Source: Nitrospirota bacterium (GTDB taxonomy: Bacteria; Nitrospirota; Thermodesulfovibrionia; Thermodesulfovibrionales; Dissulfurispiraceae). Taken from it: a stretch of DNA of 60,125 nt. The position numbers were made by a program, and so were the translations under genes. Position 1 is the stretch's first letter. Every line of letters starts with the position of its first letter. The stretch is from NCBI GenBank assembly GCA_040754455.1, contig JBFMCP010000020.1, positions 1 through 60,125 of the forward strand, read 5' to 3'. The notes under the pieces are model-generated. The model was not told the DNA's origin. It saw only the letters and a program-made list of their open reading frames with translations, and made no database searches. This document shows, one piece after another, positions 1,300 through 58,455 of the stretch.

Positions 1300-2058
1300 C
1301 TACCCGATCCTCTGCGGGTGGGTATAGATGTTGAACCGGTCTGCCCTGATGAACCCGACGACCGTGACGCCGCTTCGCTCTGCGATATCCACGGCAAGGC
1401 TGGTGGGAGAGGTCCTGCTCGCTACCATTGGAATTCCCCATTTCGCGCACTTTGAGACGATTTCCGATGACAGTCTTCCGCTGGCGAGCATGATCTTCCC
1501 TTCAAAGGGAATGGTTTCGAGAATGGCGTAGCCGATAATTTTATCGACGGCATTATGCCGCCCGATATCCTCGGCAAGGCAATAGATCTCGTTGCCGTCG
1601 CTGAGGGCCGCACTATGGACGCAGCCGGTCATTTTATAGAGCTCCGACGCGTTCTGGAATTTCCTGAACACCTCTTTCAACGCCGCGGGCGTAATGCGAA
1701 AAGGGTCATCTATCTTTTGAAGGGCGAGCCGCTTGGGGAAGGTGATGCCGCCGATGCAGCCCGAGGTGATGACCGCACCATCCGTCGTCACCTCGCCTTC
1801 TGCAGGAATATCGACCATAACGTCTTCTCCATACTCGATCGTCATCCGCTCGGCGCACCAGCCGCCCTTGATGATGTCTTCGGTCATGAACATCCCCACA
1901 ACAAGCTCTCTGACCATGAGCGGCGTGCAGTAGAGGCTCAATACCTCTTTGCCGTTCACCGATACCTTCAACCGCCGCTCTATCGCGATAGAGTCTTCTT
2001 TTTCTTCACAGGAGGTTCCGTTGTTCTTGTAAATTTTTCTTTTTAAGTATCCTTCCAT
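1300..2058 (-). CDS. fdhD: formate dehydrogenase accessory sulfurtransferase FdhD
   Basis: ITSGC, TGCVHSAAL, EDIGRHNAVDKIIG and SGRLSSEIV motifs. Confidence 0.95.
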   Translation of the reverse strand: MEGYLKRKIYKNNGTSCEEKEDSIAIERRLKVSVNGKEVLSLYCTPLMVRELVVGMFMTEDIIKGGWCAERMTIEYGEDVMVDIPAEGEVTTDGAVITSGCIGGITFPKRLALQKIDDPFRITPAALKEVFRKFQNASELYKMTGCVHSAALSDGNEIYCLAEDIGRHNAVDKIIGYAILETIPFEGKIMLASGRLSSEIVSKCAKWGIPMVASRTSPTSLAVDIAERSGVTVVGFIRADRFNIYTHPQRIG

Positions 2059-2084: not shown

Positions 2085-3650
2085 CTACTTCCCACTTGTT
2101 TTTAATTGTTCATACATTTTTGCATTCTCGATCGCAGTCCCGCATACTTCCGCAAGTGAAGCAGAGAACGCGATATCCTCTTCCGAAAACTGGCGCGGCA
2201 TGTCGGTAAGCAACCGGAGCACGCCGATGACCCTGCCCCGTGCAATAATAGGAAGCGTCAGCATGCTTTTGATCCCCTCCTGCAAGGCCTCTTTCTGGTA
2301 GTGAATACGAGAGTCTGTCGCCACATCGTGAATGGCAACAGGCCTCGTCTGCAGCGCCTCCCGTACGTTCTCTTCCCTGTCCACCGGCCCCCGTGCAAGA
2401 TATTTCTCGCTCAATCCGTAAGCAGCGGCCAGTTCCAGTTTCTGCCCCGAGGCGTCGAGCAGCCTGATGGTAGCTGCCTTGAGGTGCATGGCCTCGGGCA
2501 GCTTTCTGACGATGAGATTGAGGACCTCATCCAGACGCAGGGTGGAACTGACTACCTTCGTTACCTCCTCGAATACGCGCAGGTATTCCCTTGCGCGAGT
2601 AACGGTGCTCTCAAAGGTCCGTGCATTGACAATAGCAATGGCAGCCTGTTCGGCAATGGCGGTCATAAACTTCAGATCCTCACTGCTGTATTTGACCGGC
2701 TCGGCGGTATACATCCTCAACACGCCGATCACCTCTTTCTTGAATCGTACCGGAATGGATAATATGCTCCGGATTCCCTCTGCTTCCGCTTCCTGCCGAT
2801 AACGGGCATTGGTATCCGAAACAATATCATAGATAGAGACCGCCTTGCCGTCGAGGGCATCGAAAATGCTTGGATCGTACGCAACAGGGCCTTTGTTGAC
2901 GTAGCGCTCGCTCAATCCATGGTGTGCCGCCACTTCGAGCTTCTGCGTCTCCTTGTTCATAAGCCGCAGCATGCTCGCTTTGACATTCATGACCTTCACG
3001 GCATTCGTCACTACCAAATTCAGCACCTCACTGAGCGAGAGGCTGGAGCTGATCGCCTTACAGATGTTCTGATAGCTTTCGAGATATATCTTCTTTTCGA
3101 AAATTGTTTCCGCGCAGTCCGGGCACATGCCGTGCGTGAACATACCGAACCCCTCGTCGGTCAGATACTTTTCTATCTGCTCCCATGTGTTGTCGTCCAT
3201 CCTGATCTTTTTGCACCATGCGCAAATCGGAACGAGCCGGTCTCTCATACGGCTTTTAATAACCGATTCGACGGCAGGGAAGAGGCGGGTGGTGTCCCTG
3301 AGGATCGAAATGACGCCGACGATTTTCTTGCCTTTGATCACCGGTGAGGCCTGCTCCTCGATAAACCGCTTCTCAGCATCCTTCCCCGAGAGGATCAGGC
3401 TCCTTGCAATCGCGTGGGACGACTGCAGGCAGGCAAGCGCAGGGTACTCGTAAGGGGGCAGGACCATCCCTGTTTCGTCCTCATAATGGAGGACCTCTTC
3501 GCAGCTCTTTTTCCTGGCCTGACCGGCAGTATAGCCGGTCAGGACCTCCGCACCCCTGTTCCAATACTCTATCTGCCGTTGGGTATTGATGTAATAGACG
3601 CCATCGTCAATGCTGTCGAGTATATCAAAATGACTGCCGACGAACATCAT
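2085..3650 (-). CDS. PAS + Cys4 motif + tandem GAF sensor protein with no output domain
   Basis: N-terminal PAS (IEYWNRGAEVLTGY); PICAWCKKIR...THGMCPDC; two similar GAF repeats (GLSERYVNKGPV and GLSEKYLARGPV, each ending AI.NA). Confidence 0.85.
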   Translation of the reverse strand: MMFVGSHFDILDSIDDGVYYINTQRQIEYWNRGAEVLTGYTAGQARKKSCEEVLHYEDETGMVLPPYEYPALACLQSSHAIARSLILSGKDAEKRFIEEQASPVIKGKKIVGVISILRDTTRLFPAVESVIKSRMRDRLVPICAWCKKIRMDDNTWEQIEKYLTDEGFGMFTHGMCPDCAETIFEKKIYLESYQNICKAISSSLSLSEVLNLVVTNAVKVMNVKASMLRLMNKETQKLEVAAHHGLSERYVNKGPVAYDPSIFDALDGKAVSIYDIVSDTNARYRQEAEAEGIRSILSIPVRFKKEVIGVLRMYTAEPVKYSSEDLKFMTAIAEQAAIAIVNARTFESTVTRAREYLRVFEEVTKVVSSTLRLDEVLNLIVRKLPEAMHLKAATIRLLDASGQKLELAAAYGLSEKYLARGPVDREENVREALQTRPVAIHDVATDSRIHYQKEALQEGIKSMLTLPIIARGRVIGVLRLLTDMPRQFSEEDIAFSASLAEVCGTAIENAKMYEQLKTSGK

Positions 3651-3832: not shown

Positions 3833-6304
3833 TTACTTCGCTGCTCCCATCTTTGCCACCTCCACCTTCACCGGAACCAGAGGAGTGCCCCCGTTCACCG
3901 CAGGATAGGTCAGCGTATTCACCTTTGCATGGGCAAAATGCGTGGGCGCGAACACCGTTCCCTCGGGCACCTCGTCGGAGATCATCGCTTTCAAGTATAC
4001 CTCTCCGCGCTTCGAGGCGACCTTCACGAAACTCTCATCATTGATGTGGAGCCTCTCCGCATCCTTGGTATTGATCTGCAGATAGGCATCGGCCACCACC
4101 GAATCGAGATTCTTGGAGAGCACCGAGAGCGCACCCGAGTGCTGGAGGATTCCCGCAGTGACCAGGAACATGGGATATTCGCCGCTCACCGGCTCTATGA
4201 CTTCGTACGAAACAGGAGTGAACGAAGGGCGGAACTCTTCTCTCTGCTCTTCGACGACCAGGTCCGCAATCGATGCCCTGATGGCCGTGAGGTCCTTCAG
4301 CCCCAGGTCCTTGTTCATGAGCCGTGCCAGGTTCCTGAAGATCTTCCAATCGGGAATGGACTGCCCGGTCTCGGCAATGAGCTTCGGAATCCTCTGGATA
4401 TTCCCCGAAGCGCTCATGAAGGTCCCTTCCTTCTCGGACCAGCTGGACGAGGGGAGGACAACATCAGCGAGCTTGGCGGTCTCATTAAGGAAGGCACTCT
4501 GCACGATAAGCAGCTCGAGGCCTTTCAATGTTTTTTCGACGGTCGAAGAGTCCTGGAATGATACAAGGGGATTGCCTCCCATTATATACATGGCCTTTAA
4601 AGCACCCGGCTTGTAGAGCATCTCATAGGCGTCTTTTCCTCCGGCGGTGGGCCGCACGCCGACCATCCACATGCCGAGGGTGTTGGAGAATTCGGCAGGG
4701 ATCTGGAGCGTCGAAGGCTCATCGCCCATCAGGAGCACCAGATTCGCTGCAGCGAGCAGCGTGTTCATGCTCTTTGCATTTTCCGAAGCGCCCGAAGTTA
4801 TCGCGAGCAGCCGCTTCCCTGCAGCAGCATAGGATTTTGCGAGCCTGGTGATCTCAGCTTCTGACAACCCGGTAGTCTTCGCGCTGTCCGCAAGGGTCAT
4901 CCCTTTGAGGCTACTGATGAGGGCATCGAAATGCGGCACCTTCGCTGCCTTCTCTTTGCTGTAGAGCCCCTCCTCGACGATCACCTTCATAATGCCGTTC
5001 AGGAGCGCAACCCCCGAGCCGGGCCTTGTCTGCAGCCACTGAGTGCTGTTCCGGGCAAGCTTGGTCTCCTTTGCATTGGCAACGACCAGCTGCGCACCTT
5101 CATGCTTCGCCTGTATGAACTTCAGGCCCCATACCGGGACACTCGAGGTGATATCGGAGTCGATGACCAGCAGGAAATCGGCTTTCAGCGGAGCATCCCA
5201 CTCGATCGGCAGTTTCTCGAGACCGAAGGCCGTTGCAATGGCCTTCTGCGCCTTTGCATAGCCGAACCGCGCTGCGGAATCAATGTTGTCGGTGCCGACA
5301 ACCTCCCGCATGAATTTCTGGAGCATGTAGTTGTCTTCCATGGTGCAGCGCTGCGATCCGATAGCGCCGATTGCGGACGGGCCATGCTTTGTCTTTATCT
5401 CATCGAGCTTCTTTGCCACATACCCGAGCGCCTCTTCCCAGGAGACCGAAACCAATTCGCCGTTCTTCTTTATGAGGGGAGCGGTGAGCCTGTTTTCGGC
5501 ATAGATGTAGTCGAAACCGAACCTGCCTTTGCTGCAGAGGTCACCGGCGTTGATGCCGACGCCGTCCTTGCCGCGCGCCCTCAGGATCCTCCCTTCCCTG
5601 ATGCTCACATTGGTGGTACAGCCGCAGCCGCAGTAGGGGCATATGGTCTCATGCTCGTCCATGAACCATACCCTCGAGCGGAAGCGGTAGGGTTTGCTGC
5701 CGAGAGCGCCCACGGGACAGGCATCGATGCACTGGCCACAGAACTCGCAGTCCAGCGTCTCTTCGAACGCCGGGCTTATCTTCGATTTGAATCCTCTGCC
5801 GATGATATTGATGGCGCCGACACCCTGATGCTCGTGGCATACCCGGACGCACTTGCCGCAGAGGATGCAGCGATTGGGGTTTCTCTCGACGATCGGCGCA
5901 TCGATCCTCTCGACGTCGCTCTTCCTCGACCCGGTGAACCTGCTCTGCGCCGGTCCGTACTTGAAGGCGAGGTCCTGCAGCGCGCACTCGCCTGCTTTGT
6001 CGCAGACCGGACAATCAAGCGGGTGGTGCACCAACAGTAGTTCCAGCACCGTCCTCCGCGCCTTCGCCAGTTTCGGCGTCTCCGTCTGGACCACCATACC
6101 GTTTTCCGCCGGTGAAGAGCAGGCGGCAAAGAGTCGCTTCTGGCCCTCTACCTCAACGACACAGAGCCTGCATCCGCCGTAGGGCCTCAATCTCTTGTCA
6201 TAGCAGAGATTCGGAATATAGATGCCATTCTTCTGCGCGGCCTGGAGGATCGTCGTCCCCGGCTCGACCTTTACATTTTTTCCGTTTATGGTAAGTTCTA
6301 TCAT
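3833..6304 (-). CDS. NuoG/SfrA/FdhF-like iron-sulfur subunit (BfuA-type) with a degenerate molybdopterin domain
   Basis: 2Fe-2S Cys motif, HxxxCxxCxxxxxC, two 4Fe-4S motifs, CPYCGCGC...C and a Mo-bisPGD-type fold; NIDSAARFGY stands where FdhF has D(C/H)CAR.(C/U)H. Confidence 0.9.
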   Translation of the reverse strand: MIELTINGKNVKVEPGTTILQAAQKNGIYIPNLCYDKRLRPYGGCRLCVVEVEGQKRLFAACSSPAENGMVVQTETPKLAKARRTVLELLLVHHPLDCPVCDKAGECALQDLAFKYGPAQSRFTGSRKSDVERIDAPIVERNPNRCILCGKCVRVCHEHQGVGAINIIGRGFKSKISPAFEETLDCEFCGQCIDACPVGALGSKPYRFRSRVWFMDEHETICPYCGCGCTTNVSIREGRILRARGKDGVGINAGDLCSKGRFGFDYIYAENRLTAPLIKKNGELVSVSWEEALGYVAKKLDEIKTKHGPSAIGAIGSQRCTMEDNYMLQKFMREVVGTDNIDSAARFGYAKAQKAIATAFGLEKLPIEWDAPLKADFLLVIDSDITSSVPVWGLKFIQAKHEGAQLVVANAKETKLARNSTQWLQTRPGSGVALLNGIMKVIVEEGLYSKEKAAKVPHFDALISSLKGMTLADSAKTTGLSEAEITRLAKSYAAAGKRLLAITSGASENAKSMNTLLAAANLVLLMGDEPSTLQIPAEFSNTLGMWMVGVRPTAGGKDAYEMLYKPGALKAMYIMGGNPLVSFQDSSTVEKTLKGLELLIVQSAFLNETAKLADVVLPSSSWSEKEGTFMSASGNIQRIPKLIAETGQSIPDWKIFRNLARLMNKDLGLKDLTAIRASIADLVVEEQREEFRPSFTPVSYEVIEPVSGEYPMFLVTAGILQHSGALSVLSKNLDSVVADAYLQINTKDAERLHINDESFVKVASKRGEVYLKAMISDEVPEGTVFAPTHFAHAKVNTLTYPAVNGGTPLVPVKVEVAKMGAAK

Positions 6305-6310
6305 TGTCTC

Positions 6311-8194
6311 TTATTCCTCCTTTCCCGCAGCCGCTGCAATGACCTTGCTGCCGAGCACATCCTGAGCCGGCAGATTCTTCAATGTTTCACGCATGCTCCG
6401 CGGCCCGATCTTCACCGAATCGAATTTGCACGCCTCATAGCAGGAGCGGCACTGGATGCACTTGGCCTGGTCGATGCGATGGGCGGCCTTCTTTTCTCCG
6501 GCTACTGCATTCTGCGGGCATACCCTCTTGCAGGCGCCGCAGCCTTTGCACTTCTCTTCATCGATATAGAAGGTGCAGAGGTCTTTGCAGACGCCGGTCT
6601 TGCACCACTGCTCGTTGATGTGGGATTCATACTCCTCCCTGAAGTATTTTATGGTCGTCAGGACAGGGTTCGGCGCGGTCTGCCCCAGTCCGCAGAGGGA
6701 GGTGGCGATGATGTCCTGCGACATATCCTGGAGCAGCTCGATATCGCCCTGCTTCCCTTTGCCTTCGGTGATGTTCGTCAGGAGGTCGAGCATGACGGTG
6801 GTGCCGATTCTGCAGGGGGGGCATTTGCCGCACGATTCCTCTGCAGTAAACTCGAGGAAGAACTTTGCCACGCTCACCATGCAGTTCAGGTCGTTCATGA
6901 CAACCATACCGCCCGAGCCGACGATTGCGCCGGTCTGCATAATGTCCTCATAGGTGACCGGGGTATCGAGAAGGTGTTCGGGGATACAGCCGCCGGAAGG
7001 TCCGCCGAGCTGCACTGCCTTGAACTTTCTTCCTTTTGGAATACCGCCGCCGATTTCGAAGATGACCTTTCTGAGCGGAATACCCATTGGCACTTCGATC
7101 AGACCGATGTTATTGATGGCGCCGCTCAGGGCAAAAACCTTTGTCCCCGTCGATTTCTCGGTCCCGAGGCTCCGGTACCAGTCGCCGCCGTTCAATATGA
7201 TTTGCGGAATGTTCGCATAGGTTTCGACATTATTGAGAACCGTAGGGCAATCCCATAAGCCCTTCACTGCGGGGAACGGCGGCCGCGGCCGCGGCATGCC
7301 GCGCTTTCCTTCGAGCGATCTCATGAGCGCTGTTTCCTCACCGCAGACGAACGCTCCGGCGCCCTGATATATCTCGATATCGAGATTGAACCCGGTGCCC
7401 AGGATGTTGTCGCCGAGGAGGCCGTGCTCCTTTGCCTGGTTGATGGCGAGCTGCAGCCGGGAGACCGCCAGGGGGTACTCGGCCCTGACGTAGATATATC
7501 CCTTGTTGGCGCCGATCGCCTTTGCACCGATGATCATTCCTTCGAGGACGACGTGGGGGTCGGCTTCCATGATGCTTCTGTCCATGAACGCGCCGGGGTC
7601 GCCCTCGTCACCGTTACAGAGGATGAATTTCCGATCGCCTTTGACCTTTGCACAGAACTCCCACTTCATGCCAGTAGGAAAGCCTGCGCCGCCCCTTCCG
7701 CGGAGCCCCGAGCGCTTCATCTCTTCTATGATCTGCCACTGGGTCATCTCGGTGAGAGCCTTTGCTGCGGCCTGATAGCCGTCGCGTGCGATATACTCTT
7801 CGATCTTTTCAGGGTCGATCAGGCCTTTGTTCCGCAGTGCCCTGAGGACCTGCAGGTTGAAGAAGGGAATGTCCTTGGTAGCCGGGATGGTCTGCTTCTT
7901 GATAGGCTCCTTGTAGAGAAGCTTTTGTACGGGCCGCCCTTTAATGAAATGCTCCTCCACAATGAGCGGAAGATCATTGACGGTTACTTTCTCATAGAAA
8001 ATACCATCGGGGAGCACAGTCATGACCGGCCCCTCTGCACAGAATCCGTTGCAACCGGTGAGCACCACGCTTATTTCATTCTGAAGGCCTCTCTTTTTTA
8101 ATTCTTCATCGAGGGCATTTTTTATCTTCAAGCTTCCGCCTGCAATGCAGCCGGTTCCCCCGCAGAGCATGACATTGGTACGGTAGTTACTCAT
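6311..8194 (-). CDS. NuoF/HydB-type FMN/NADH-binding subunit (BfuB) with N-terminal Trx-like 2Fe-2S and C-terminal 2x4Fe-4S domains
   Basis: GLRGRGGAGFPTG, EGDPGAFMDR, GAGAFVCGEETAL, GGPSGGC, ESCGKCPPCRIG and two CxxCxxCxxxC motifs. Confidence 0.95.
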   Translation of the reverse strand: MSNYRTNVMLCGGTGCIAGGSLKIKNALDEELKKRGLQNEISVVLTGCNGFCAEGPVMTVLPDGIFYEKVTVNDLPLIVEEHFIKGRPVQKLLYKEPIKKQTIPATKDIPFFNLQVLRALRNKGLIDPEKIEEYIARDGYQAAAKALTEMTQWQIIEEMKRSGLRGRGGAGFPTGMKWEFCAKVKGDRKFILCNGDEGDPGAFMDRSIMEADPHVVLEGMIIGAKAIGANKGYIYVRAEYPLAVSRLQLAINQAKEHGLLGDNILGTGFNLDIEIYQGAGAFVCGEETALMRSLEGKRGMPRPRPPFPAVKGLWDCPTVLNNVETYANIPQIILNGGDWYRSLGTEKSTGTKVFALSGAINNIGLIEVPMGIPLRKVIFEIGGGIPKGRKFKAVQLGGPSGGCIPEHLLDTPVTYEDIMQTGAIVGSGGMVVMNDLNCMVSVAKFFLEFTAEESCGKCPPCRIGTTVMLDLLTNITEGKGKQGDIELLQDMSQDIIATSLCGLGQTAPNPVLTTIKYFREEYESHINEQWCKTGVCKDLCTFYIDEEKCKGCGACKRVCPQNAVAGEKKAAHRIDQAKCIQCRSCYEACKFDSVKIGPRSMRETLKNLPAQDVLGSKVIAAAAGKEE

Positions 8195-8206
8195 TGTTCC
8201 TCCTCA

Positions 8207-8590
8207 TTAATATGAAGTTTCGCAGCCCATGACAAGTGCATACTCCTCGACCGGCTGCCCCTTCATAATATGCTCGCTGAATATCTTCCTCATCTTCTCG
8301 TCATTGAGATACACATATTTCACCGGCGGCTGATTGAGGAGCTCGACGGTCACCATCGGCTCCTTGCTGCAGAATCCCGCACAGCCTGAGGTGACGATTG
8401 CTATATCCTTCTTGTTATTCTTGTTCATCTCATCGAGAAGGGCGTCCATCACTTTCCGTGCACCGGCGGCGATTCCGCAGGTCCCCATATGCACGGTGAC
8501 CTTTACGGTGCTGCCGCCCTCTCTCAGGGTAAGCATTGCCTTGTACTCTTCCTTTATCTTCTTTAAATCATCAACGGTAAGTCTGGGCAT
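8207..8590 (-). CDS. thioredoxin-like [2Fe-2S] ferredoxin (HndB/HydD-like)
   Basis: VHMGTCGIAAGA...TSGCAGFCSKEP; ATG 8590 has a GGAGG SD. Confidence 0.9.
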   Translation of the reverse strand: MPRLTVDDLKKIKEEYKAMLTLREGGSTVKVTVHMGTCGIAAGARKVMDALLDEMNKNNKKDIAIVTSGCAGFCSKEPMVTVELLNQPPVKYVYLNDEKMRKIFSEHIMKGQPVEEYALVMGCETSY

Positions 8591-8620
8591 ATCCTGACCT
8601 CCTTTGGTCAAATTATTTTG

Positions 8621-8708
8621 GAATTCAGGAGCCAGGAGTCTGGAGCCAGAATTACGCATGAATGCTTCCCGCTTTTATTCTGACTTCTGGGTTCTGACTT
8701 CTGAATTC
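8621..8708. repeat. inverted heptamer-period repeat hairpin
   Basis: GAATTCAGGAGCCAGGAGTCTGGAGCCAGAAT ... ATTCTGACTTCTGGGTTCTGACTTCTGAATTC. Confidence 0.8.
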
Positions 8709-8717
8709 TCATGTTCA

Positions 8718-9575
8718 TTAGTATTCCTTGAGCAAATCCAGCACCTTGACCGGATTGATCGATCCGTGCGTATCCTTATCGATCACCACGACCGGCGCCA
8801 ACCCGCAGGCACCGAGACAGCGGACCGTTTCGAGAGAGAACTTCTTGTCGGTCGTAATGCCGCCGACATCAATCTTCAATCCGTCGCTGAGTTTCTTCAC
8901 GATCTCTTCTGCGCCTTTGACGTAGCAGGCGGTCCCGAGGCAGACCCTGATATTGTGTTTGCCTTTAGGTTTCATGGTGAAGAACGAGTAGAAGGAGACG
9001 ACACCGTGGACCTCGCTTACCGGCACCTTCAGGCCCTTCGCAATGTGACGCTGTACGACGGGGGGGAGATAACCGATCAGCTCCTGCGCCTCCTGGAGCA
9101 CGGGAATCAGCGCGCCCGGCTTTCCCCTGTAGCGCTTTATGATCTCATCCAGCTTTGCCGCCGCCTCTTTCGTGTAGTCCTCATCCTGGGGCTCAGTCGT
9201 GACACCCTTTTTCTTAAACTCCACGGCTTTGGTCGTCACCTCGACGAGCAGCGCGGGGGAAAACGGCTTCGGCAGGTAATCGACAATTCTCATGCTCAAT
9301 GACTCTTTTATGCTTTCCTGAGAGGGATATCCGGTGATGACCACGATATTGACCTCGGGGTCCTTCGTCCGCACCTGTTTCATAAATTCGAGGCCGTCCA
9401 TCTCAGGCATCTTGAGATCGGTAATAATAAGGTCGTAATTGTTCTTATCAAGGAGGCTCAAGGCCTCTTTTGCAGATGATGCGGTGTTGACCCCGTATCC
9501 CTCAGGACCGAGGATCCTTTCACAGCTGGTTCGCACAATCTGTTCATCATCGACTACAAGGACATTGCCCTTCAT
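8718..9575 (-). CDS. response-regulator receiver fused to a NuoE/HydC [2Fe-2S] subunit
   Basis: REC (VDD, IITDLKMP, ITGY, KPF) followed by NuoE (LIPVLQEAQ, SFYSFF, VCLGTACYVKG, RCLGACGLAP). Confidence 0.92.
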   Translation of the reverse strand: MKGNVLVVDDEQIVRTSCERILGPEGYGVNTASSAKEALSLLDKNNYDLIITDLKMPEMDGLEFMKQVRTKDPEVNIVVITGYPSQESIKESLSMRIVDYLPKPFSPALLVEVTTKAVEFKKKGVTTEPQDEDYTKEAAAKLDEIIKRYRGKPGALIPVLQEAQELIGYLPPVVQRHIAKGLKVPVSEVHGVVSFYSFFTMKPKGKHNIRVCLGTACYVKGAEEIVKKLSDGLKIDVGGITTDKKFSLETVRCLGACGLAPVVVIDKDTHGSINPVKVLDLLKEY

Positions 9576-9587
9576 TCCTTATCCTCC

Positions 9588-10352
9588 TTATCCCTTTATT
9601 GGATTCACTCGTGCAAGCCACAGGTACCATCCATCGCAGAGATGGTCTTTCATGAGTGAGCATATGGCGTCATTGGCGTGCCCGTTCACTTCCTTGATCA
9701 CCCCGGTCATCGGCGCCTTGATCTCGTAGATCTTGCCGTCGCCCGAGAGCAGTTTTGCAAAGGTCTCGCCGTTGGCAATCGCCTTAACGTTCCTCATCAT
9801 ATCGACATACAGCATCTGACCGCTGACGAGGAAATGCCGCACATCAACGCCTATCTCCCATGAGCCGTCTTTTGCCGGACGCGCCCAGGTGCCGTCCTTG
9901 TAGAACATCGTCTGGCTGTCCATATCGGATGCCGGGACAATGTACTCCTTGAACTGGTCGATATACGCCTTTTTAAGGATCCACCCCCTCTTGTCAAAGA
10001 CCCGCTTTGCCACATTCATCATGAAGTCGGGCGTAAAGGGTTTCTCGAGGTACTCGAAGGCGCCGAGCCGGATGGATTCCTTTGCATCCTCCAGCGTCGG
10101 ATACCCGGTTATGACGACGACATCCGCCTTGGGCTGTATGGTCTTTGCCTCCTGGATCACGGTAAGACCGTACACATCAGGGAGTCTGATGTCGGTGATA
10201 ACCAGGTCGAACTCGTCTTTAGAAAGCCTCTCGACAGCACTATGGCCGTCTTCCACGGTGAATACGGTATACCCTTCGCCGCCCAGTATGCGCTTGCAAC
10301 TGAGGCCGACAACGGGATCGTCATCCACCACCAATATTCGCTGCTTATCCAT
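9588..10352 (-). CDS. response-regulator receiver fused to a glycine-cleavage-H (GcvH)-like domain
   Basis: REC (VDDD, VITDIRLP, ITGY, KPF); C-terminus GTWAR...EIGVD...GETFA...APMTGVIKEVN...GWY follows the GcvH pattern; ATG 10352 has an SD. Confidence 0.8.
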   Translation of the reverse strand: MDKQRILVVDDDPVVGLSCKRILGGEGYTVFTVEDGHSAVERLSKDEFDLVITDIRLPDVYGLTVIQEAKTIQPKADVVVITGYPTLEDAKESIRLGAFEYLEKPFTPDFMMNVAKRVFDKRGWILKKAYIDQFKEYIVPASDMDSQTMFYKDGTWARPAKDGSWEIGVDVRHFLVSGQMLYVDMMRNVKAIANGETFAKLLSGDGKIYEIKAPMTGVIKEVNGHANDAICSLMKDHLCDGWYLWLARVNPIKG

Positions 10353-10398
10353 GGTTCCCCCTTTCAATAGGTGTTAACTGCATCAATACCCATTAAAA

Positions 10399-10414
10399 AG
10401 CAATATCGATGCCA
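10399..10414 (-). promoter_or_regulatory. sigma54 (-24/-12) promoter of the REC/oxidoreductase operon
   Basis: Minus strand reads TGGCATCGATATTGCT, matching TGGCA-N6-TTGC. Confidence 0.8.
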
Positions 10415-10465
10415 GGGTAGAAAAACATGAAATTTTAACAGCTTACACCTTCTGAGCGGTTGAAG

Positions 10466-10576
10466 TGTATAACTTTTTTATACGGTAGCTCGTCCCTGTT
10501 GCTGCAGACCTCAAGCTGAAACTCCTTGAAAAACTGCTCTTGTCGCACGCTGCAGAACTGTATATTTTTTCCAGAC
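10466..10576. promoter_or_regulatory. candidate enhancer-binding-protein sites
   Basis: Palindrome GTATAA-N5-TTATAC at 10467-10483 and related TGTATATTTTTTCCAGAC at 10559-10576, upstream of the sigma54 site. Confidence 0.5.
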
Positions 10577-10779
10577 ACCAGCATATGCATCGATGACGGC
10601 AGATTTCAGATTTAAAATCTTAATGCCGATCATAAAATCTGCAGCCATAAATGGTAGAAGCAGGGCAAGCGCATGGAAACAGGGGGGTACGCGCAGGTGG
10701 TTAAGGGAGGGGTGCTCTGGGGAGCCTTCTCAATGTGCGCACTCTTTCGTTTGTCTATCGTTGGTCGAACTACGTAACC

Positions 10780-11523
10780 CTATATATATTCGGACAATCT
10801 CTCACTACGCCGACTTTTGAGCACGATCAGTGTGATGGTGCCTGCCATAAAGATAATTCCTCCTGCCAAGGCCCAGAGCGCACCGGGCTCGCGGCTGACT
10901 TCGAGGAGGATCGCTTTGAAAGGATACGCCTGCAGGTCTTTTACATGGATATTAAAGCCTTTGTAGAGAGATGGCTTGTTCGGAAGCAGCCGGTCCTGCT
11001 GCATTACCGCACCATCGGCGAGATATTCTACATCAACGGACCAGCCGGTAAGATAGCCGCGGGGGTCGATCTGCAGGTCGATGCTCTTTATCCTCATCAC
11101 CGTGCTCCCGGCAATCTCGAGGGCGGTCCCTTCCTGCGCAACGGCGTTGCCTTTAAACCCCTCGAGCGAGCTGAGCAGGTGGGCGAGGAGAATGAAGATG
11201 AATCCGATATGAACGATCTGCGGGGATATCAACAGGAGCCATTGCGTGGCCTTTCGTTTTTTTATGATCGACTCGATGCTGCAAAAGAGCGTATTGGCGG
11301 AAAGCAGAACAAGGATGATGACGGATGCCCACAGCCACCACGTGATCCCCGATGCTTGTACGTTCATCCATTCAAAGAGCGGCATGGCATGGATGGACTG
11401 AAACTCCTGATGTGAGGGCATGATCACGGCTCCCGCAAAGAGCATGATGATGAGCAAACAGAGGAGCCAGATGGCTGTCCGCAGAGAGAGAAGAAAGCTC
11501 AGCAGCTGTTTCCCGATCATCAT
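10780..11523 (-). CDS. short ResB/CcsB-like cytochrome c biogenesis protein
   Basis: LSLRTAIWLL TM segment, ANTLFCS, SPQIVHIGF (conserved His), REPG before the C-terminal TM; adjacent to ccsA. Confidence 0.8.
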   Translation of the reverse strand: MMIGKQLLSFLLSLRTAIWLLCLLIIMLFAGAVIMPSHQEFQSIHAMPLFEWMNVQASGITWWLWASVIILVLLSANTLFCSIESIIKKRKATQWLLLISPQIVHIGFIFILLAHLLSSLEGFKGNAVAQEGTALEIAGSTVMRIKSIDLQIDPRGYLTGWSVDVEYLADGAVMQQDRLLPNKPSLYKGFNIHVKDLQAYPFKAILLEVSREPGALWALAGGIIFMAGTITLIVLKSRRSERLSEYI

Positions 11524-11577
11524 TCAGTCTCCTTGTTTCCGACTCCCTACCTTTATTCTGACTCCTGAATACCGCTT

Positions 11578-12288
11578 TTAAAAACTATGCGAACTCTTCA
11601 TTAAGAGACTCACGCCGAGATACGTAAACAACACGACGGCGAATCCTGCAATGCCGATGATTGCCGAAGGCCTTCCCATCCACTCCTGCCGCAATCGCGC
11701 ATGGAGATAAAGACTGTAAAAAAGCCACAGAATACTGGTCCAGAGCTCCTTGGGCGTCCATAACCAGTACGTGCCCCATGCAAGATACGCCCAAATACCT
11801 CCGAAGATCATCGAGAGAGAGAAGAAGCAGTATCCGATGAGTATCGAGCGGTACTGCATGCTCTCAAGTAAGCTGTCATGTCTTTTCAGATAGAGTGCGC
11901 CGAGGACTGCTGCGATGCCGAAGAGGGCATAGGACAGAAAGGCAAGCACCACATGCAGCTCGAACCACAACGTCTTCAATACCGGCGGCAGCGGAGTATT
12001 ATGCTGTTTGGCAACAAGAGCGAAGACCGTGAAGAGAGCGGCGAGCAGGGCAATCCAGCTGTAGTATTGGAGATGCTCCCTTAAACGCCGGTGAAAGGGC
12101 AGCGAAAAGGCGATCATGGAAGCGGAAAGAAAGGTAAGAGTATCATGAGGCCCCACAAGGGGGAGTCTCCCCAGGGTCAATCCCCTTGAGATGATATAAG
12201 CTATCTGGAGTGCGAGGCCGACATAGAGGAGCGGCCGCTTCCAAAGGCTGAAAAGGTAAAAGGGAAAAGCAGCGAATGCTAGCAGCAT
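11578..12288 (-). CDS. ccsA: cytochrome c biogenesis protein CcsA (system II)
   Basis: GRLPL, WFELHV, GGIWAYLAWGTYWLWTPKE, LYLH and C-terminal SSHSF. Confidence 0.9.
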   Translation of the reverse strand: MLLAFAAFPFYLFSLWKRPLLYVGLALQIAYIISRGLTLGRLPLVGPHDTLTFLSASMIAFSLPFHRRLREHLQYYSWIALLAALFTVFALVAKQHNTPLPPVLKTLWFELHVVLAFLSYALFGIAAVLGALYLKRHDSLLESMQYRSILIGYCFFSLSMIFGGIWAYLAWGTYWLWTPKELWTSILWLFYSLYLHARLRQEWMGRPSAIIGIAGFAVVLFTYLGVSLLMKSSHSF

Positions 12289-53144: not shown

Positions 53145-55376
53145 TTACGTCGTCAATTTGCGATAAATGTCGGTGATTTTGTTCGGGAGCTTGCGGACAT
53201 CGTCGATAAACGTATAGTTCGCCTCTCCGTACATATAGGGCAGATAGGAATGGGCCTCTTTATCGATGGTGATGCAGAAGGAGTGGATGCCCTTCTCCTT
53301 CGCCTCGATCAAAGCCCGTCTCGTGTCCTCAATGCCGTACTCTCCTTTATAAGCATCCCAGTCTTCGGGCTTTCCATCGCTGAGTGTGATCATGATTTTT
53401 GTACGCGCCTCGACGGATTTGAGTTTGGTGATCGAATGCCGGAGGGGAGGCCCCATGCGTGTATAATCCTTCGGCGCTATACCGGCAATACGTTTCTTCA
53501 CCGCCTCTGAGTAGCCTTCATCAAAGCTTTTGATTTTGTAAAAGTCACAGCGGGTCCTCGTCATGCCCGAAAAGCCGTAGATGGCGTAGCGGTCTCCGAG
53601 TGTCTCGAGCGCCTCGCACATCATCACGAGGGACTCCTTTTCAGCCTCGTTGACCCATCCCTTTGTCGAACCGCTCATATCGAGGAGAAAGAGCACCGCC
53701 ATGTTCCGCTCCTGGCGGTCGAGACGGGTGAAGAGGTTCTCTCCCGGCGAAAAGCCTGCATGCATGTCGGCATACGCTTCGACCGCTGCATCAATGTCGA
53801 CGTCCTCTCCATCTTTCTGCAACCGCAGCACGCGCGGCTCGCGCTTGAGGAGCTCGAATTTTTTTCGAAGGATCTTTATATATCCGCTGTAACGCTTCAG
53901 CGTCATTTCCACAAAGGGCTCGCTGCCGGGGTGGATATCATGCTCGTAGAGGGTGCACCAGCTCCGCTTGTATCCTCCCCGACGGTAATCCCATTCGTCA
54001 TACTTTATTCCTTTGCCCGGGGCGGTGACCTCACCGCCCTCCTCCTCCTCGAAGAGCTCCTCCTTGAGAGAGATGCAGTGCCGGGCTACGCCGATGTCGC
54101 TGCCCTTGACGAGAATGCCCCCGTGGATATCGCCCAGCTCCTCTATGAGCTCTCTCAGTTCACTGTCGAGCTCGATCATCCTGCCCTTTATGAGGAGGTA
54201 ATCCCGTTCAGGCTGAGGCGCACGTTCGCAGTGCGCCTCTTCCGAAGGGGTCCTCCTGGGCGGCTCCAGCTCCGGCATCGTCAGCAGGCGCCTGATGATT
54301 CCCTCAAGCCTCTTTTTCCGCGCCTCGCGCTCTGCTCTCAAGCGAAAAGATACCCGCTCGGGTTTGATGGTGCCAAGGATCGGCATATCCAGAGATTTAT
54401 AGTCACCATCGAGCCTCTCTGCGATACGATAGAAATCGGCGAGAAGCCTTAAGCTTTCAGAGGGAGTGTGCGCTTGTTCAAGACGTTGTAATGCATCCTC
54501 ACCCCCTTTTAACTGTTCCGGCACAGTTTTCTTCAGATAATAGCGATAGAGACCCTCGACAAACGCTGTTTTCTGCGGGAGATTGCTCAGCGGCTCCCGC
54601 CCTTCAAACACCGCTGCCTTTATCGGTTCCGCAGCCCGCATGAGACCGGGGAGCTCATTGCCGAGGAACCGTTCAAGCCGCAACGCTTCAAGAATAGTGT
54701 AGAGGTCAATGGCAAGATTTTTCTCGGGAAACCGTCTGAAGAAGCTTTCGATGTCAGGGCGGCCGTTTTCAGGCATATGGGTGCGCAGCAGTTCCTCATC
54801 TGGAGTCAAGGTGCCGCATACGATCTGGGCCCACTTGTGCACCGCCGTAAGTTTGTAGAGGAGGAAATTATGTCCGGGCTCCTCGAACCTGTCGATCATT
54901 GAGGGAAGATAGATCGTTGAGGTATCGGTAAAGGAGTTCTTATCGGGTGCGATCTTCAGCTCGCGTCCCGAAACACCCCGCAGAAAGGGCTCGAGCACGC
55001 CGGCGATCTTCTGGAACCGCAACCCGCCGGGACTCTGGAATGCACGCAATGCGTCCTCGTCAGTCCGGGAGACAAACGCCAGGAATGGGTCGACTCCCTG
55101 GGCATCCAGCAGATCGAAGGCATGGGCCATCCACCGCTCCATTTCGTCGAGCGGGAGAAAGGATGCTGCCTTCCTGATATGCTTGAGCACATTGGGGACC
55201 AGCGAAGAGCTCGCATGGGAGAGGGCAAGGCAGAGGGCAAGGGCCTTTTGCCTGAGCCGGTCATCGAGCACATCGATCCCGTGCACCACCGCCTGTATTT
55301 CTTCGTCTTCAAAAAAATCGAGGGTCAGGTTTCGTACCAGACCCTCTCGCAGATGTACAATGTGCCGTTCCGTCAA
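53145..55376 (-). CDS. NorD/CbbO-type VWA adaptor protein (copy 2)
   Basis: TIYLP, YDEWDY...WC, MIDAS LLDMSGST, YTRMG, SDGKP. Confidence 0.9.
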   Translation of the reverse strand: MTERHIVHLREGLVRNLTLDFFEDEEIQAVVHGIDVLDDRLRQKALALCLALSHASSSLVPNVLKHIRKAASFLPLDEMERWMAHAFDLLDAQGVDPFLAFVSRTDEDALRAFQSPGGLRFQKIAGVLEPFLRGVSGRELKIAPDKNSFTDTSTIYLPSMIDRFEEPGHNFLLYKLTAVHKWAQIVCGTLTPDEELLRTHMPENGRPDIESFFRRFPEKNLAIDLYTILEALRLERFLGNELPGLMRAAEPIKAAVFEGREPLSNLPQKTAFVEGLYRYYLKKTVPEQLKGGEDALQRLEQAHTPSESLRLLADFYRIAERLDGDYKSLDMPILGTIKPERVSFRLRAEREARKKRLEGIIRRLLTMPELEPPRRTPSEEAHCERAPQPERDYLLIKGRMIELDSELRELIEELGDIHGGILVKGSDIGVARHCISLKEELFEEEEGGEVTAPGKGIKYDEWDYRRGGYKRSWCTLYEHDIHPGSEPFVEMTLKRYSGYIKILRKKFELLKREPRVLRLQKDGEDVDIDAAVEAYADMHAGFSPGENLFTRLDRQERNMAVLFLLDMSGSTKGWVNEAEKESLVMMCEALETLGDRYAIYGFSGMTRTRCDFYKIKSFDEGYSEAVKKRIAGIAPKDYTRMGPPLRHSITKLKSVEARTKIMITLSDGKPEDWDAYKGEYGIEDTRRALIEAKEKGIHSFCITIDKEAHSYLPYMYGEANYTFIDDVRKLPNKITDIYRKLTT

Positions 55377-57634
55377 AGCGTCAACCCCCGGTAGATCTCT
55401 ACTATTCTACCCGGAAGCTTGCGCACCTCGTCAATAACAATGAAGTTCGATTCTCCGAACATGTGCGGCAGATACAGGCTCGCCTCTCTATCTATGGTGA
55501 TGCAGAAGGGGCGAATCCCCTGCTCCCTGATTTCCAGCAGCGCTTTCCGGGTATCCTCTATGCCGTAATCCCCTTTATATGATCCCCAATCCTCGGGTCT
55601 CCCGTCGCTCAGCGCAATGAGAAGCTTTGTCCTCGCCTCGACGGTCTTGAGGACCGTGGCGGAATGCCTGATAGGGGCACCCATCCGCGTATAATCCCTC
55701 GGCGTGATGCCCGCGATACGCCGCTTTACCTCTTCCGCGTAGCCCTCACGGAAACTCTTGATATGGAAATAGTCGCAGCGCGTCCTCGTCATGCCCGAAA
55801 AGCCGTAGATGGCGTAGCGGTCGCCAAGTAATTCGAGAGCCTCGCACATCAGCACCAGCGCCTCCTTCTCCGCCACATTGACCCACCCCTTTGTCGAACC
55901 GCTCATATCGAGAAGAAAGAGCACCGCAATGTCCCGTGTATTCCGGTTGAAGCTCGTATAGATCATACCCTCGGGTGAGAGCCCGGCATGCAGGTCGGAG
56001 AGCGCTTCGACAGCGGCATCGAGATCGATGGCATCGCCGTCTTTCTGTTTTCTTACTTTTTGGCGGATCGTCTTCAGCGTCTCGAATTTCTTCCGCAACT
56101 GCGCAACAGAGCCCCGGTATCGCTTGAGGGTCTGCTCCACAAAAGGCTCATCCCCGGGCTGCAGGTCCTGCTCGTAGACAATGCACCAGTCCTTCTTGTA
56201 ATCCCCTCTATGGTAATCCCACTCATCATAGGCGATGCCGTCCTGCTGCGTACGCCCGACCTCTTCCGCCCGGATTATATCTTCGAGATTGACATAGACG
56301 CTGCCGCTGGCGAGATTGCTTCCCTTCACCAGCCGCCCCTCAGAAACAACAGCGCCGCCCTTGAGCTTATCTTTCACTGTATCATCCATGGCGATATTCT
56401 GCCCTTTGATCACAAGATATTCTTGTTCGGGCTTCACCGGGTGCTCATGAACAATCGAATGAGACCTGCGGTGCTGACGGCGCTCAGGAAGCGGCATCTT
56501 GAGGAGCTTTTCGATCATGCCTTCGAGTTTTCTCTTCATCTCGTTCCTCTTTGCCCTGAGCCGTTTCGCAACTCTGTCCGGCTTTATGGTGCCGAGGAAA
56601 AAGACCGGACGCTGCGGTTCGTACTCTCCCGTGAGCTTGACTGCTGCCTGATAACAGGCGACGAGTGCGCTCATGATCTCCTGCGGGTCCGCCGCGTGCC
56701 GTAATGCCGTTATCCGATCGTGCAGATGCAGGAGCGCTTCCGGAGCAGTCCCCTTTGCCGCTCCCCTCAGATAGTAGTGGTAAATTCCCTCCACGAAAGC
56801 GGTTTTTTCCGAGAGCTCATCAAGCGATGGGCGCTCATTATAAACCTCATCCTTCAGCGGGGCCGCCCGCTCCATCAGACCGGGAAGCTCGCGCCAGAGA
56901 AACGTGTCGAGCATGAATGCCTCGAGCAGCGTAAAGAGGTCGATGGCAAGCTCCCGCTGGGGAAAGGCATTGAAGAAGGTTTCGAGATCCTGTATGCCCT
57001 CCTCCTGGCTTTCTGCATAAGCCAGGCCGGCGAGTGCTCCGCTCATATCAGGAGTAAGCGTACCGCAGGCGACCTGAGCCCATTTGTGCGCTGCCATGAG
57101 CAGATAGACAAGCAGGTTATCCTCCGGCCGCTTGAAACGGCTCAGCACCGCAGGGAGATAGATGGTATCCATATCGGTTGATGGCTCGATATCCGTGCTG
57201 ACCGAGAAGTCATGCCCTGAAATCCCCTTGATATACAGTTGCAGGGTATCGGTTATATCCTTCAGCCGCAGCCGCTCGAGGCTTACGAATGCCTTGAGGT
57301 GCTCGGTATCGACGTTCGAGATGAACTGGAAGAAGGCATCGGTCCCCTGCCCGCTAAGGACCTCGGCGGCGGTGTCGATCCATTTGGCGAGGTCGTCCGG
57401 ATCGAGTGTGAGCGCAACCCTTTTCACGCGCTTGAGCATCCCGGGAATGATCGAGGGAGTGGCTTCGGAAAGGATAAAGCAGAGCACCAGGAGCTTGCGC
57501 CGCGGCGCATGATCGAACATATCGATGGTATCGATAATGGCGATGATGTCCTGGTTTTCGAAAAAATTGAGCCTCAGGTTCTTGATGAGCTCGCCCATCA
57601 AGCGCTCGGCATAGCTGTCGATTGTTGCTTGCAT
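55373..57634 (-). CDS. NorD/CbbO-type VWA adaptor protein (copy 1)
   Basis: Same motifs: TIYLP, YDEWDY, LLDMSGST, YTRMG, SDGRP. Confidence 0.9.
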   Translation of the reverse strand: MQATIDSYAERLMGELIKNLRLNFFENQDIIAIIDTIDMFDHAPRRKLLVLCFILSEATPSIIPGMLKRVKRVALTLDPDDLAKWIDTAAEVLSGQGTDAFFQFISNVDTEHLKAFVSLERLRLKDITDTLQLYIKGISGHDFSVSTDIEPSTDMDTIYLPAVLSRFKRPEDNLLVYLLMAAHKWAQVACGTLTPDMSGALAGLAYAESQEEGIQDLETFFNAFPQRELAIDLFTLLEAFMLDTFLWRELPGLMERAAPLKDEVYNERPSLDELSEKTAFVEGIYHYYLRGAAKGTAPEALLHLHDRITALRHAADPQEIMSALVACYQAAVKLTGEYEPQRPVFFLGTIKPDRVAKRLRAKRNEMKRKLEGMIEKLLKMPLPERRQHRRSHSIVHEHPVKPEQEYLVIKGQNIAMDDTVKDKLKGGAVVSEGRLVKGSNLASGSVYVNLEDIIRAEEVGRTQQDGIAYDEWDYHRGDYKKDWCIVYEQDLQPGDEPFVEQTLKRYRGSVAQLRKKFETLKTIRQKVRKQKDGDAIDLDAAVEALSDLHAGLSPEGMIYTSFNRNTRDIAVLFLLDMSGSTKGWVNVAEKEALVLMCEALELLGDRYAIYGFSGMTRTRCDYFHIKSFREGYAEEVKRRIAGITPRDYTRMGAPIRHSATVLKTVEARTKLLIALSDGRPEDWGSYKGDYGIEDTRKALLEIREQGIRPFCITIDREASLYLPHMFGESNFIVIDEVRKLPGRIVEIYRGLTL

Positions 57635-58455
57635 TAGAACAATGATTGGATGATTTCGGAGAGTGCCCTCAGCATTTCATGGTCGTCGGTGAGCGCCTCG
57701 GCGATTGCCACCTCGCTGGCCCTCTTCGGATCGATGCCCGAGCGGATGAGCCGTGCGGCATGAATGAGAAGCCTCGTGCTTGCCCCCTCGGTAAGCCCTG
57801 CCTCGATGAGATTCCGCGTCTTCTCCGCAAAGCTGACGAGCAGCTCGGCAGACCGCATATCGATGCCGGTTTCGTGTACGATAATCTCCACCTCGAACTC
57901 CCTCTTGGGATAGGTGAATTCAAGAGCGAGGAAGCGCTGCCGGGTGCTCTGCTTCAGGTCCTTGAGCACGCTCTGGTAGCCCGGATTGTAGGATATGGCG
58001 AGTAGAAAATCGGAGGAGGCGCTCAGGATCTCTCCCCGCTTCTCTATCGGTAGGATTCTCCTGTGGTCGGCAAGAGGGTGGATGACCACCGTCGTATCTT
58101 TCCGGGCCTCGACGATCTCGTCGAGGTAACAGAAGCCGCCGGATTTGACTGCCCTGGTGAGCGGGCCGTCGACCCAGACCGTCTCTTCACCCTGGATCAG
58201 ATATCTGCCGACCAGGTCGGAGACGGTGAGGTCATCATGGCACGAGACGGTTATCAGCGGCCGCTTGAACTTCCATGCCATGTACTCCATGAATCTCGTC
58301 TTGCCGCACCCGGTGGGTCCCTTGAGCAGCACCGGAATGCGGTTCCGGTACGCAGCCTCGAAGAGCGCCTTCTCTCCGTTTGTTTCGAGGTAGTAGGGCT
58401 CTTCCTCGATAAAATACTCTTCAGTTTTTATGGATCTCACGGTATTTGTCTTCAT
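57634..58455 (-). CDS. CbbQ/NirQ/NorQ-family MoxR AAA+ ATPase
   Basis: GPTGCGKT, YLDEIVEARKD, SYNPGYQ, KQSTRQRF, STRLL. Confidence 0.95.
   Translation of the reverse strand: MKTNTVRSIKTEEYFIEEEPYYLETNGEKALFEAAYRNRIPVLLKGPTGCGKTRFMEYMAWKFKRPLITVSCHDDLTVSDLVGRYLIQGEETVWVDGPLTRAVKSGGFCYLDEIVEARKDTTVVIHPLADHRRILPIEKRGEILSASSDFLLAISYNPGYQSVLKDLKQSTRQRFLALEFTYPKREFEVEIIVHETGIDMRSAELLVSFAEKTRNLIEAGLTEGASTRLLIHAARLIRSGIDPKRASEVAIAEALTDDHEMLRALSEIIQSLF

Follow-up and report, generated by a model that had tools for sequence, protein, structure and literature searches.

The gene at positions 8718..9575 (minus strand) of the 60,125-nucleotide stretch of Nitrospirota DNA analysed here (the window) encodes a 285 amino acid protein, REC-BfuC, in which ORF, Pfam and Foldseek analyses identify a receiver domain fused to a NuoE/HydC-type [2Fe-2S] subunit. 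The explanation that we favour, with slightly more belief than doubt, is that BfuC carries a working two-component receiver within a BfuABC(D) module, and that phosphorylation of this receiver would switch the module. BfuABC(D) is a predicted soluble NADH/ferredoxin module of the electron-bifurcating type, for which coupled turnover is expected. Such a switch, in a subunit of a module that probably feeds respiratory complex I, suggests that a sensor kinase may directly control an energy-coupling enzyme in a large group of anaerobic Nitrospirota.

The reading frame begins with an ATG codon and contains no internal stop. The receiver occupies residues 1-120 (9216..9575, minus strand; Response_reg match at residues 5-113, E = 1.5e-30) and the BfuC domain occupies residues 136-285 (8721..9170, minus strand; 2Fe-2S_thioredx match at residues 143-285, E = 1.9e-50), with a variable linker of residues about 121-135 between them (9171..9215, minus strand). 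A first-pass annotation, made from the sequence alone, had claimed an intact receiver and a complete four-cysteine NuoE in one frame, and the translation bears this out. Pfam and alignments place D9 and D10 (VDD), D53 (IITD), T81 (ITG) and K103 (KPF) in the receiver, and the C1 cluster ligands are C212, C217, C253 and C257, which are invariant in 63 of 63 class members and in 120 of 120 close homologues. In Foldseek, the protein most closely matches C subunits from enzymes that bifurcate electrons (7T2R_C, 8A6T_C and 7P5H_C), the best being 7T2R_C of NiFe-HydABCSL at 48% identity, and the N-terminal half matches receivers (e.g. a Spo0F-like fold with an rmsd of 1.1 Å). An AlphaFold model contains two well-folded domains (mean pLDDT 82.7; pTM 0.50), with a receiver whose secondary structure agrees with the (beta/alpha)5 fold. 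The linker has pLDDT values below 50 at residues 125-132, and the model fixes no orientation of the receiver relative to the BfuC domain. A complex prediction that combined receiver residues 2-120 with BfuB 4-528, BfuA 1-203 and BfuC 136-285 gave a score of 0.00, which counts neither way.

An assembly chimera can be ruled out, because the REC-NuoE joint is bridged by single contigs in four of four runs (X3 8383-10700, X4 7581-10684, X5 6300-10684 and X6 8794-9341), both Pfam domains are present in 120 of the 120 best homologues listed, and the fusion recurs in many genomes of the class. Neither of the two possible source studies produced the bridging contigs of X5 and X6, and the confirmation in reads and homologues that had been called for is thereby provided. 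Among the matches listed, the named homologues belong to Nitrospirota/Thermodesulfovibrionales, save one labelled Alphaproteobacteria. Loci L001-L023 of a GTDB scan are likewise Thermodesulfovibrionales fusions, of which 22 are full-length and one (L016) is cut by a contig end. There are 275 genomes with a match at E 1e-30 among the 301 of the class, and at least 149 of the 301 carry a full-length fusion in a single frame (150 rows from 149 genomes, one row holding an internal TGA). A level of E 1e-64, a cut picked after viewing the table, is reached by 203 of the 301 genomes, which is an upper estimate given that one of them (G144) proved unfused; by family, this level is reached by 0 of 15 genomes in f5 and 4 of 35 in f11.

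In a broader sample, both domains are present in 17 of 31 proteins chosen from 150 representatives at 50% identity, and some of the 50%-identity clusters include members named Deltaproteobacteria or Pseudomonadota. A single clade for the NuoE parts of the fused proteins is rejected (AU p 2.5e-12, from 38 of 87 rows that were selected after seeing a quick tree, with the fused and unfused labels fixed beforehand), and thus the fusion has been gained or lost repeatedly, the test fitting both repeated gain and repeated loss. The quick NuoE tree of 87 rows leaves 40 of its 83 inner branches open. Values of pN/pS for the receiver (0.21), linker (0.33) and BfuC domain (0.15), computed from 78 pairs among 13 genes, are saturated (pS about 0.77) and thus carry little weight. 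In four receiver-NuoE paralogues (P0121, P0125, P0126 and P0167), some of them in tandem, the [2Fe-2S] cysteines of the NuoE part have been lost wholly or in part, and it is possible that these serve as phosphorylation-controlled decoy subunits.

REC-BfuC is part of a minus-strand operon that is headed by a sigma-54-type -24/-12 promoter motif (10399..10414, minus strand), found by motif search. The first gene (9588..10352, minus strand) encodes a REC-GcvH-like protein whose receiver, according to Pfam and alignments, has the same helix-1 motif as that of REC-BfuC. REC-BfuC is followed by a HydD-like small thioredoxin-fold ferredoxin (8207..8590, minus strand; a weak Pfam match with E = 2.5e-4, from a cluster present in 54 mapped loci), the long NuoF/HydB homologue BfuB (6311..8194, minus strand), the NuoG-like BfuA (3833..6304, minus strand), a PAS-GAF-GAF protein (2085..3650, minus strand) and the FdhD sulfurtransferase (1300..2058, minus strand). 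The order REC-BfuC, hydD, bfuB, bfuA recurs in most of the 63 mapped loci. With what we take to be the -24/-12 consensus, 25 of 42 loci have a sigma-54-type motif with at most one mismatch ahead of REC-GcvH, where shuffling predicts 0.1, and the motif lies upstream of inner operon genes in 0 of 63, 0 of 57 and 0 of 54 cases.

The REC-GcvH-like protein has its own conserved alpha4 face, and the consensus of its family has no conserved Lys in the GcvH part. The PAS-GAF-GAF and fdhD genes follow the operon only in close relatives (9 and 10 loci, respectively), and do so although BfuA lacks a Mo ligand; no output domain was found in the PAS-GAF-GAF protein. Directly upstream of the operon promoter are resB/ccsB cytochrome c biogenesis genes (10780-12288, minus strand), which are not recurring neighbours in the mapped loci. 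Elsewhere in the window (53145-58455, minus strand), a gene for a CbbQ/NorQ-type AAA ATPase is followed by two large ORFs of 743 and 753 amino acids, neither of which matches a Pfam family at E 1e-6.

The first-pass annotation had related the fused subunit to HydC of HydABC enzymes. A HydABC hydrogenase is not what the operon encodes, for its subunit A is NuoG-like and has neither an H-cluster nor a Mo ligand. Pfam finds no Fe-hydrogenase domain in BfuA, and the NCBIfam hydrogenase models match only its residues 2-206, far under their cutoffs. BfuA has five Fe-S sites and a molybdopterin fold, in which the formate dehydrogenase motif CARVCH aligns to AARFGY and the Mo-ligand position is Cys in 0 of 58 family rows. 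The candidates HydABC [FeFe]-hydrogenase, whose B and C subunits (7Q4V, 8A6T, 7P5H) and HydD-like gene do have homologues here, and formate dehydrogenase alpha are therefore both rejected, the first because subunit A matches NuoG/FDH folds without an H-cluster domain and the second because BfuA lacks a Cys or Sec ligand to Mo.

The closest PDB match of BfuB is the A. mobile NiFe-HydB (E 2e-248). The B1 and B2 ligands are kept in 61 of 61 long rows (which include three other paralogues from the source genome), those of B2 being C438, H525, C531 and C536. The DPGAFM motif that contains A202 and M204 is kept in 60 of 61 rows, and the B3, B4 and B5 cysteines are invariant in 28 of 28. Phe182, which the available text of Schut et al. 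places near FMN/NAD, has no Phe counterpart at that number in the BfuB alignment, and the nearby Phe180 varies. In the text of Schut et al. (2022; PMC9304861) available to us, the B1-B5 and C1 ligands, His525 and A202/M204 are among the features that define the Bfu core. Because these ligands are kept and the H-cluster and Mo ligand are absent, the operon is, as judged from its predicted proteins, one that encodes a Type 3-like BfuABC(D) NADH/ferredoxin module without a catalytic head of its own. The same source describes Type 3, including Nuo-Bfu and the A. mobile NiFe-HydABCSL (7T2R), as sharing further features with the present operon, namely a NuoG-like BfuA with a His-ligated cluster, hydD and kinase-like genes in the cluster, and a predicted link to complex I. 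The receiver on BfuC is one feature that sets the operon apart, for the available text of PMC9304861 mentions no receiver, and its one use of ‘regulator’ is unrelated.

The receiver of REC-BfuC appears functional, and its alignments are best read as pointing to a switch at the protein level, because the phospho-site is invariant, a kinase-recognition motif is shared with the cluster receivers, the output face is specific to the subfamily, and decay is seen where the kinase is missing. Among diverse class members, D9 is kept in 63 of 63 and each of D53, T81 and K103 in 62 of 63, and all five phospho-site residues are kept in 120 of 120 close homologues. Kinase specificity is set by helix 1 and the beta5-alpha5 loop of a receiver. 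The helix-1 motif seen in the alignments, V14-x-x-S17-C18-x-R20 (within 9216..9575, minus strand), belongs to a set of residues (V14, S17, C18, R20, I80 and P107) that is common to all cluster receivers and rare elsewhere across loci. In the source genome (G000), V14, S17, C18, R20 and P107 of the fusion and cluster receivers are rare among the other 86 receivers, and S/C-C occurs in helix 1 of only 5 of 91, which are REC-BfuC, REC-GcvH and three receivers located beside kinases on contig C3. Another set of residues (S85, Q86, L93, I97 and P102), which we take to lie on the alpha4-beta5 output face, is conserved to at least 95% in the fusion and is absent or rare in sister receivers.

Receivers on BfuC have degenerated in four genomes (G050, G116, G147 and G166), and in these the kinase was not found at E 1e-100. 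The P-S-x loop is still present in these degenerate receivers, although D53 or T/K has been lost, a pattern that also fits a structural role. Another genome (G144) has kept the kinase and its accompanying cassette, but its BfuC has no receiver, and the receiver is therefore dispensable for the enzyme. The earlier proposal of a post-translational switch is thus upheld insofar as the receiver looks operational, whereas the fusion by itself does not imply direct gating.

The window had also been said to encode no histidine kinase. This is correct for the 53 ORFs scanned (of 129 listed), none of which matches a HisKA or HATPase family of Pfam, but the kinase is not missing from the genome. Two HAMP-HisKA-HATPase kinases are encoded on contig C3 (L081:10386-11954, minus strand, and L081:12161-13300, plus strand), together with two receivers that stand alone and a REC-sigma54 activator. 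In relatives this kinase cluster is contiguous with the fusion, the kinase lying within 12 kb of it in 46 of the 112 genomes whose places are listed. A periplasmic CxxCH motif is present in 11 of 20 kinases among the matches listed, the others being short, cut or unrelated forms, plus L101. Because of this motif, we infer that the candidate kinase binds heme c. Contig C3 also holds a cassette of HATPase (anti-sigma-type), DRTGG, PHP and HATPase genes (L081:13344-15555), which is conserved and travels with the Bfu module. Possibly, this cassette provides a kinase/phosphatase pair that acts as a second regulatory layer. In one protein (P0143), a HATPase of the cassette type is fused to NuoE.

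There are 186 genomes among the 301 that contain both kinase and fusion, 84 that contain neither, 17 with the fusion only and 14 with the kinase only, in a set of related genomes whose counts overstate independence. Of the 35 genomes in family f11, four carry the fusion, and these are also the four with the kinase. Ten of the 17 fusion-only genomes were looked at, among them the four with degenerate receivers. G147 has a degenerate receiver and yet a kinase core (50% identity) is found at a distance of about 8 kb, and four fusion-only genomes (G183, G199, G134 and G235) have a second kinase type at 47-67%. The fusions of G080 (98% complete) and G224 (89% complete) are 81-82% identical to that of the window, and the best kinases in these two genomes reach 41-44%, with none close.

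Complex I is the likeliest partner of the Bfu module because of gene order, including one cluster that replaces nuoEFG. That genome (G090, 100% complete) has nuoD on one side of the entire cluster and nuoH on the other, and it encodes one NuoD and no short NuoF. The predicted Nuo-Bfu complex, which the available text of PMC9304861 assigns to BfuB clade 39 of Planctomycetes and Nitrospirae, is recognized by bfuABC residing inside the nuo operon in place of nuoEFG, an arrangement found in G090 and not in G000. Nuo operons without EFG also face the cluster in L004, L006, L007, L133, L135 and L137, of which the last three belong to loci chosen mainly for kinase adjacency, a set whose mapping ended at L144. 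Among 116 genomes with listed places, 73 have the kinase within 7 kb of a canonical nuoF, and in 25 of 104 the fusion lies within 15 kb of one. In contrast to predicted Nuo-Bfu as described in that text, the module is usually located apart from or divergent to nuo and mostly coexists with canonical NuoEFG. Only 11 of the 63 mapped loci have nuo genes within the fetched stretch, and a canonical NuoF is also present in 163 of the 203 genomes at the fusion level. The source genome has a single nuo operon with its own nuoEFG, and its Bfu module, kinase and nuo genes are on three different contigs.

These observations suggest a mechanism of three steps. Very probably, the membrane-bound HAMP histidine kinase of contig C3, which often has a periplasmic heme-c motif, would phosphorylate D53. 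The same kinase would also serve REC-GcvH, the stand-alone receivers and the REC-sigma54 activator that would drive the operon promoter, and therefore one signal would act on both transcription and protein. It is probable, although less so, that the beta4-alpha4-beta5 face of the receiver docks on a partner surface and that phosphorylation changes the activity or the assembly of the module. The last step, to which we give a narrow preference, is that the module serves as an alternative electron-input head of the Nuo-Bfu type for complex I, either beside or in place of NuoEFG, in which case the switch would most likely govern assembly or docking. The receiver had originally been tied to the mobile gating element of the enzyme. 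BfuC does hold the mobile gating part, but in the available text of PMC9304861 this part is the C-terminal domain. The receiver is tethered to the N-terminus through the low-confidence linker, and control of docking or assembly therefore seems at least as likely as direct gating.

A more far-reaching proposal is tentative and, in our estimate, doubtful. Perhaps complex I of Thermodesulfovibrionia has two exchangeable heads, NuoEFG and a bifurcating BfuABC that uses NADH and ferredoxin, and the choice between them would be made within seconds by a kinase that senses redox state through periplasmic heme c, phosphorylates the BfuC receiver and also induces the operon via sigma-54. Other anaerobes would then have acquired receiver-BfuC fusions on several occasions to the same end, and phosphorylation would be a general form of control over electron bifurcation that has gone unrecognised.

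Competing explanations differ in what the receiver does or in which enzyme the module serves. It is unlikely that the receiver is a passenger that came from a neighbouring receiver gene and is phosphorylated without effect on the enzyme, whether as a sink for phosphate or as a spatial tether within the kinase/sigma54 circuit, possibly with feedback of the enzyme's abundance or redox state to the signalling. The flexible linker with its unfixed domain orientation, the stand-alone receiver gene often found just upstream of the fusion, the unfused use of the same receiver subfamily before bfuC-bfuB-nuo in Syntrophobacteraceae and the receiverless BfuC of G144 would all be accommodated by such a role. 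However, a sink needs no output face, yet the S85/Q86/L93/I97/P102 set is conserved only in the fusion, and the scatter of fused NuoE parts over more than one clade points to repeated gain or loss. The least probable of the alternatives is that the receiver chiefly serves structure or assembly, as does the mycobacterial protein MSMEG_2064, whose deletion breaks complex I assembly according to the available text of PMC10068793, and that phosphorylation is secondary or absent. The persistence of degenerate receivers that retain the P-S-x loop agrees with this role, but in genomes with the kinase there is almost no variation at the phospho-site or in the residues for kinase recognition, the receiver decay that was examined falls where the kinase was not found, and G144 does without a receiver altogether.

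Intermediate between these in probability, and thus also unlikely, is a switch that is real in a module that serves another partner encoded elsewhere, such as NfnSL (in a Stn/Nfn-Bfu-like transhydrogenase), a formate dehydrogenase or a NiFe hydrogenase. In its favour, nfnS and nfnL lie inside the operon in ten loci (L020, L106, L109, L119, L122, L132-L134, L141 and L142), fdhD trails the operon in 10 loci, the window included, the source genome has three NiFe large subunits, and the available text of PMC9304861 describes an A. mobile module that serves a NiFe hydrogenase in the same HydD/HisK company. Nevertheless, there is no hydrogenase or formate dehydrogenase catalytic gene among the recurring neighbour clusters of the mapped loci, not one of 58 BfuA family rows has the Mo ligand, the selenocysteine formate dehydrogenase of the source genome has NuoE/NuoF-type genes of its own, and the replacement of nuoEFG in G090 favours complex I. 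We therefore retain the reading of a phosphorylation-switched BfuC with complex I as its likeliest partner.

The nearest precedent for a receiver on a respiratory NADH enzyme is, in the available texts of PMC10068793 and PMC9274095, the orphan response regulator MSMEG_2064/Rv3143, a subunit of mycobacterial complex I that is needed for its assembly. In both systems the receiver is physically part of a respiratory NADH-oxidising machine, which in the present case is predicted from the genes, and phosphorylation has been proposed to control assembly there as it is here. Those texts describe MSMEG_2064 as a separate protein that touches NuoB/A/C/I, with a buried Asp and without a known kinase, whereas the present receiver is fused to BfuC, within a head of the bifurcating type, and has an identifiable candidate kinase. 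Our literature search found no paper on a receiver-NuoE/HydC/BfuC fusion, although response-regulator censuses and fuller Bfu member lists may still include one, and no report of a Bfu/HydABC-type bifurcating enzyme switched by phosphorylation. In the available part of the archaeal census PMC5847659, NuoE/NADH terms are without a match, and in that of PMC11406978 there are 0 matches for ‘receiver’. Automatic JGI protein names already mention both domains. If the favoured reading is true, it would give a function to a class-wide operon that lacks a catalytic head, and the question bears on the predicted Nuo-Bfu complex in anaerobes that are widespread in the subsurface, sediments and hot springs. 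The question can be tested with purified proteins, since it turns on a single Asp (D53), a kinase candidate that has a putative heme sensor has been identified, and decayed or deleted receivers serve as natural controls.

Several related arrangements were also observed. There are two tandem bfuB-bfuA copies behind one REC-BfuC in L106, L109, L119 and L132, with nfnSL inside the operon. The source genome has a second Bfu-type complex together with the selenocysteine formate dehydrogenase (L083, G000 C42:1936-6918), wherein an in-frame TGA occupies the ligand position. BfuB paralogues with C-terminal CBS pairs are encoded at L084:6036-8396 and L085:8665-11040, and one of them adjoins CO dehydrogenase/acetyl-CoA synthase-like genes. 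Judging from their domains, these would be further Bfu modules to which regulatory domains have been fused. In Syntrophobacteraceae and delta proteobacteria (L030, L036, L062 and L067), S-C-x-R receivers precede unfused bfuC-bfuB and then nuoA-D, with no nuoG, and in L030 and L062 a kinase-like gene lies upstream of the receiver; this arrangement is a putative BfuA-less complex I head. Related receivers, some with a kinase-like gene, are also found in Ignavibacteria (L044, L060 and L025) within ferredoxin/NrfD-like/multiheme-like respiratory clusters, as judged from N-terminal sequence only. The receiver/kinase signalling family thus seems to be tied broadly to respiratory operons.
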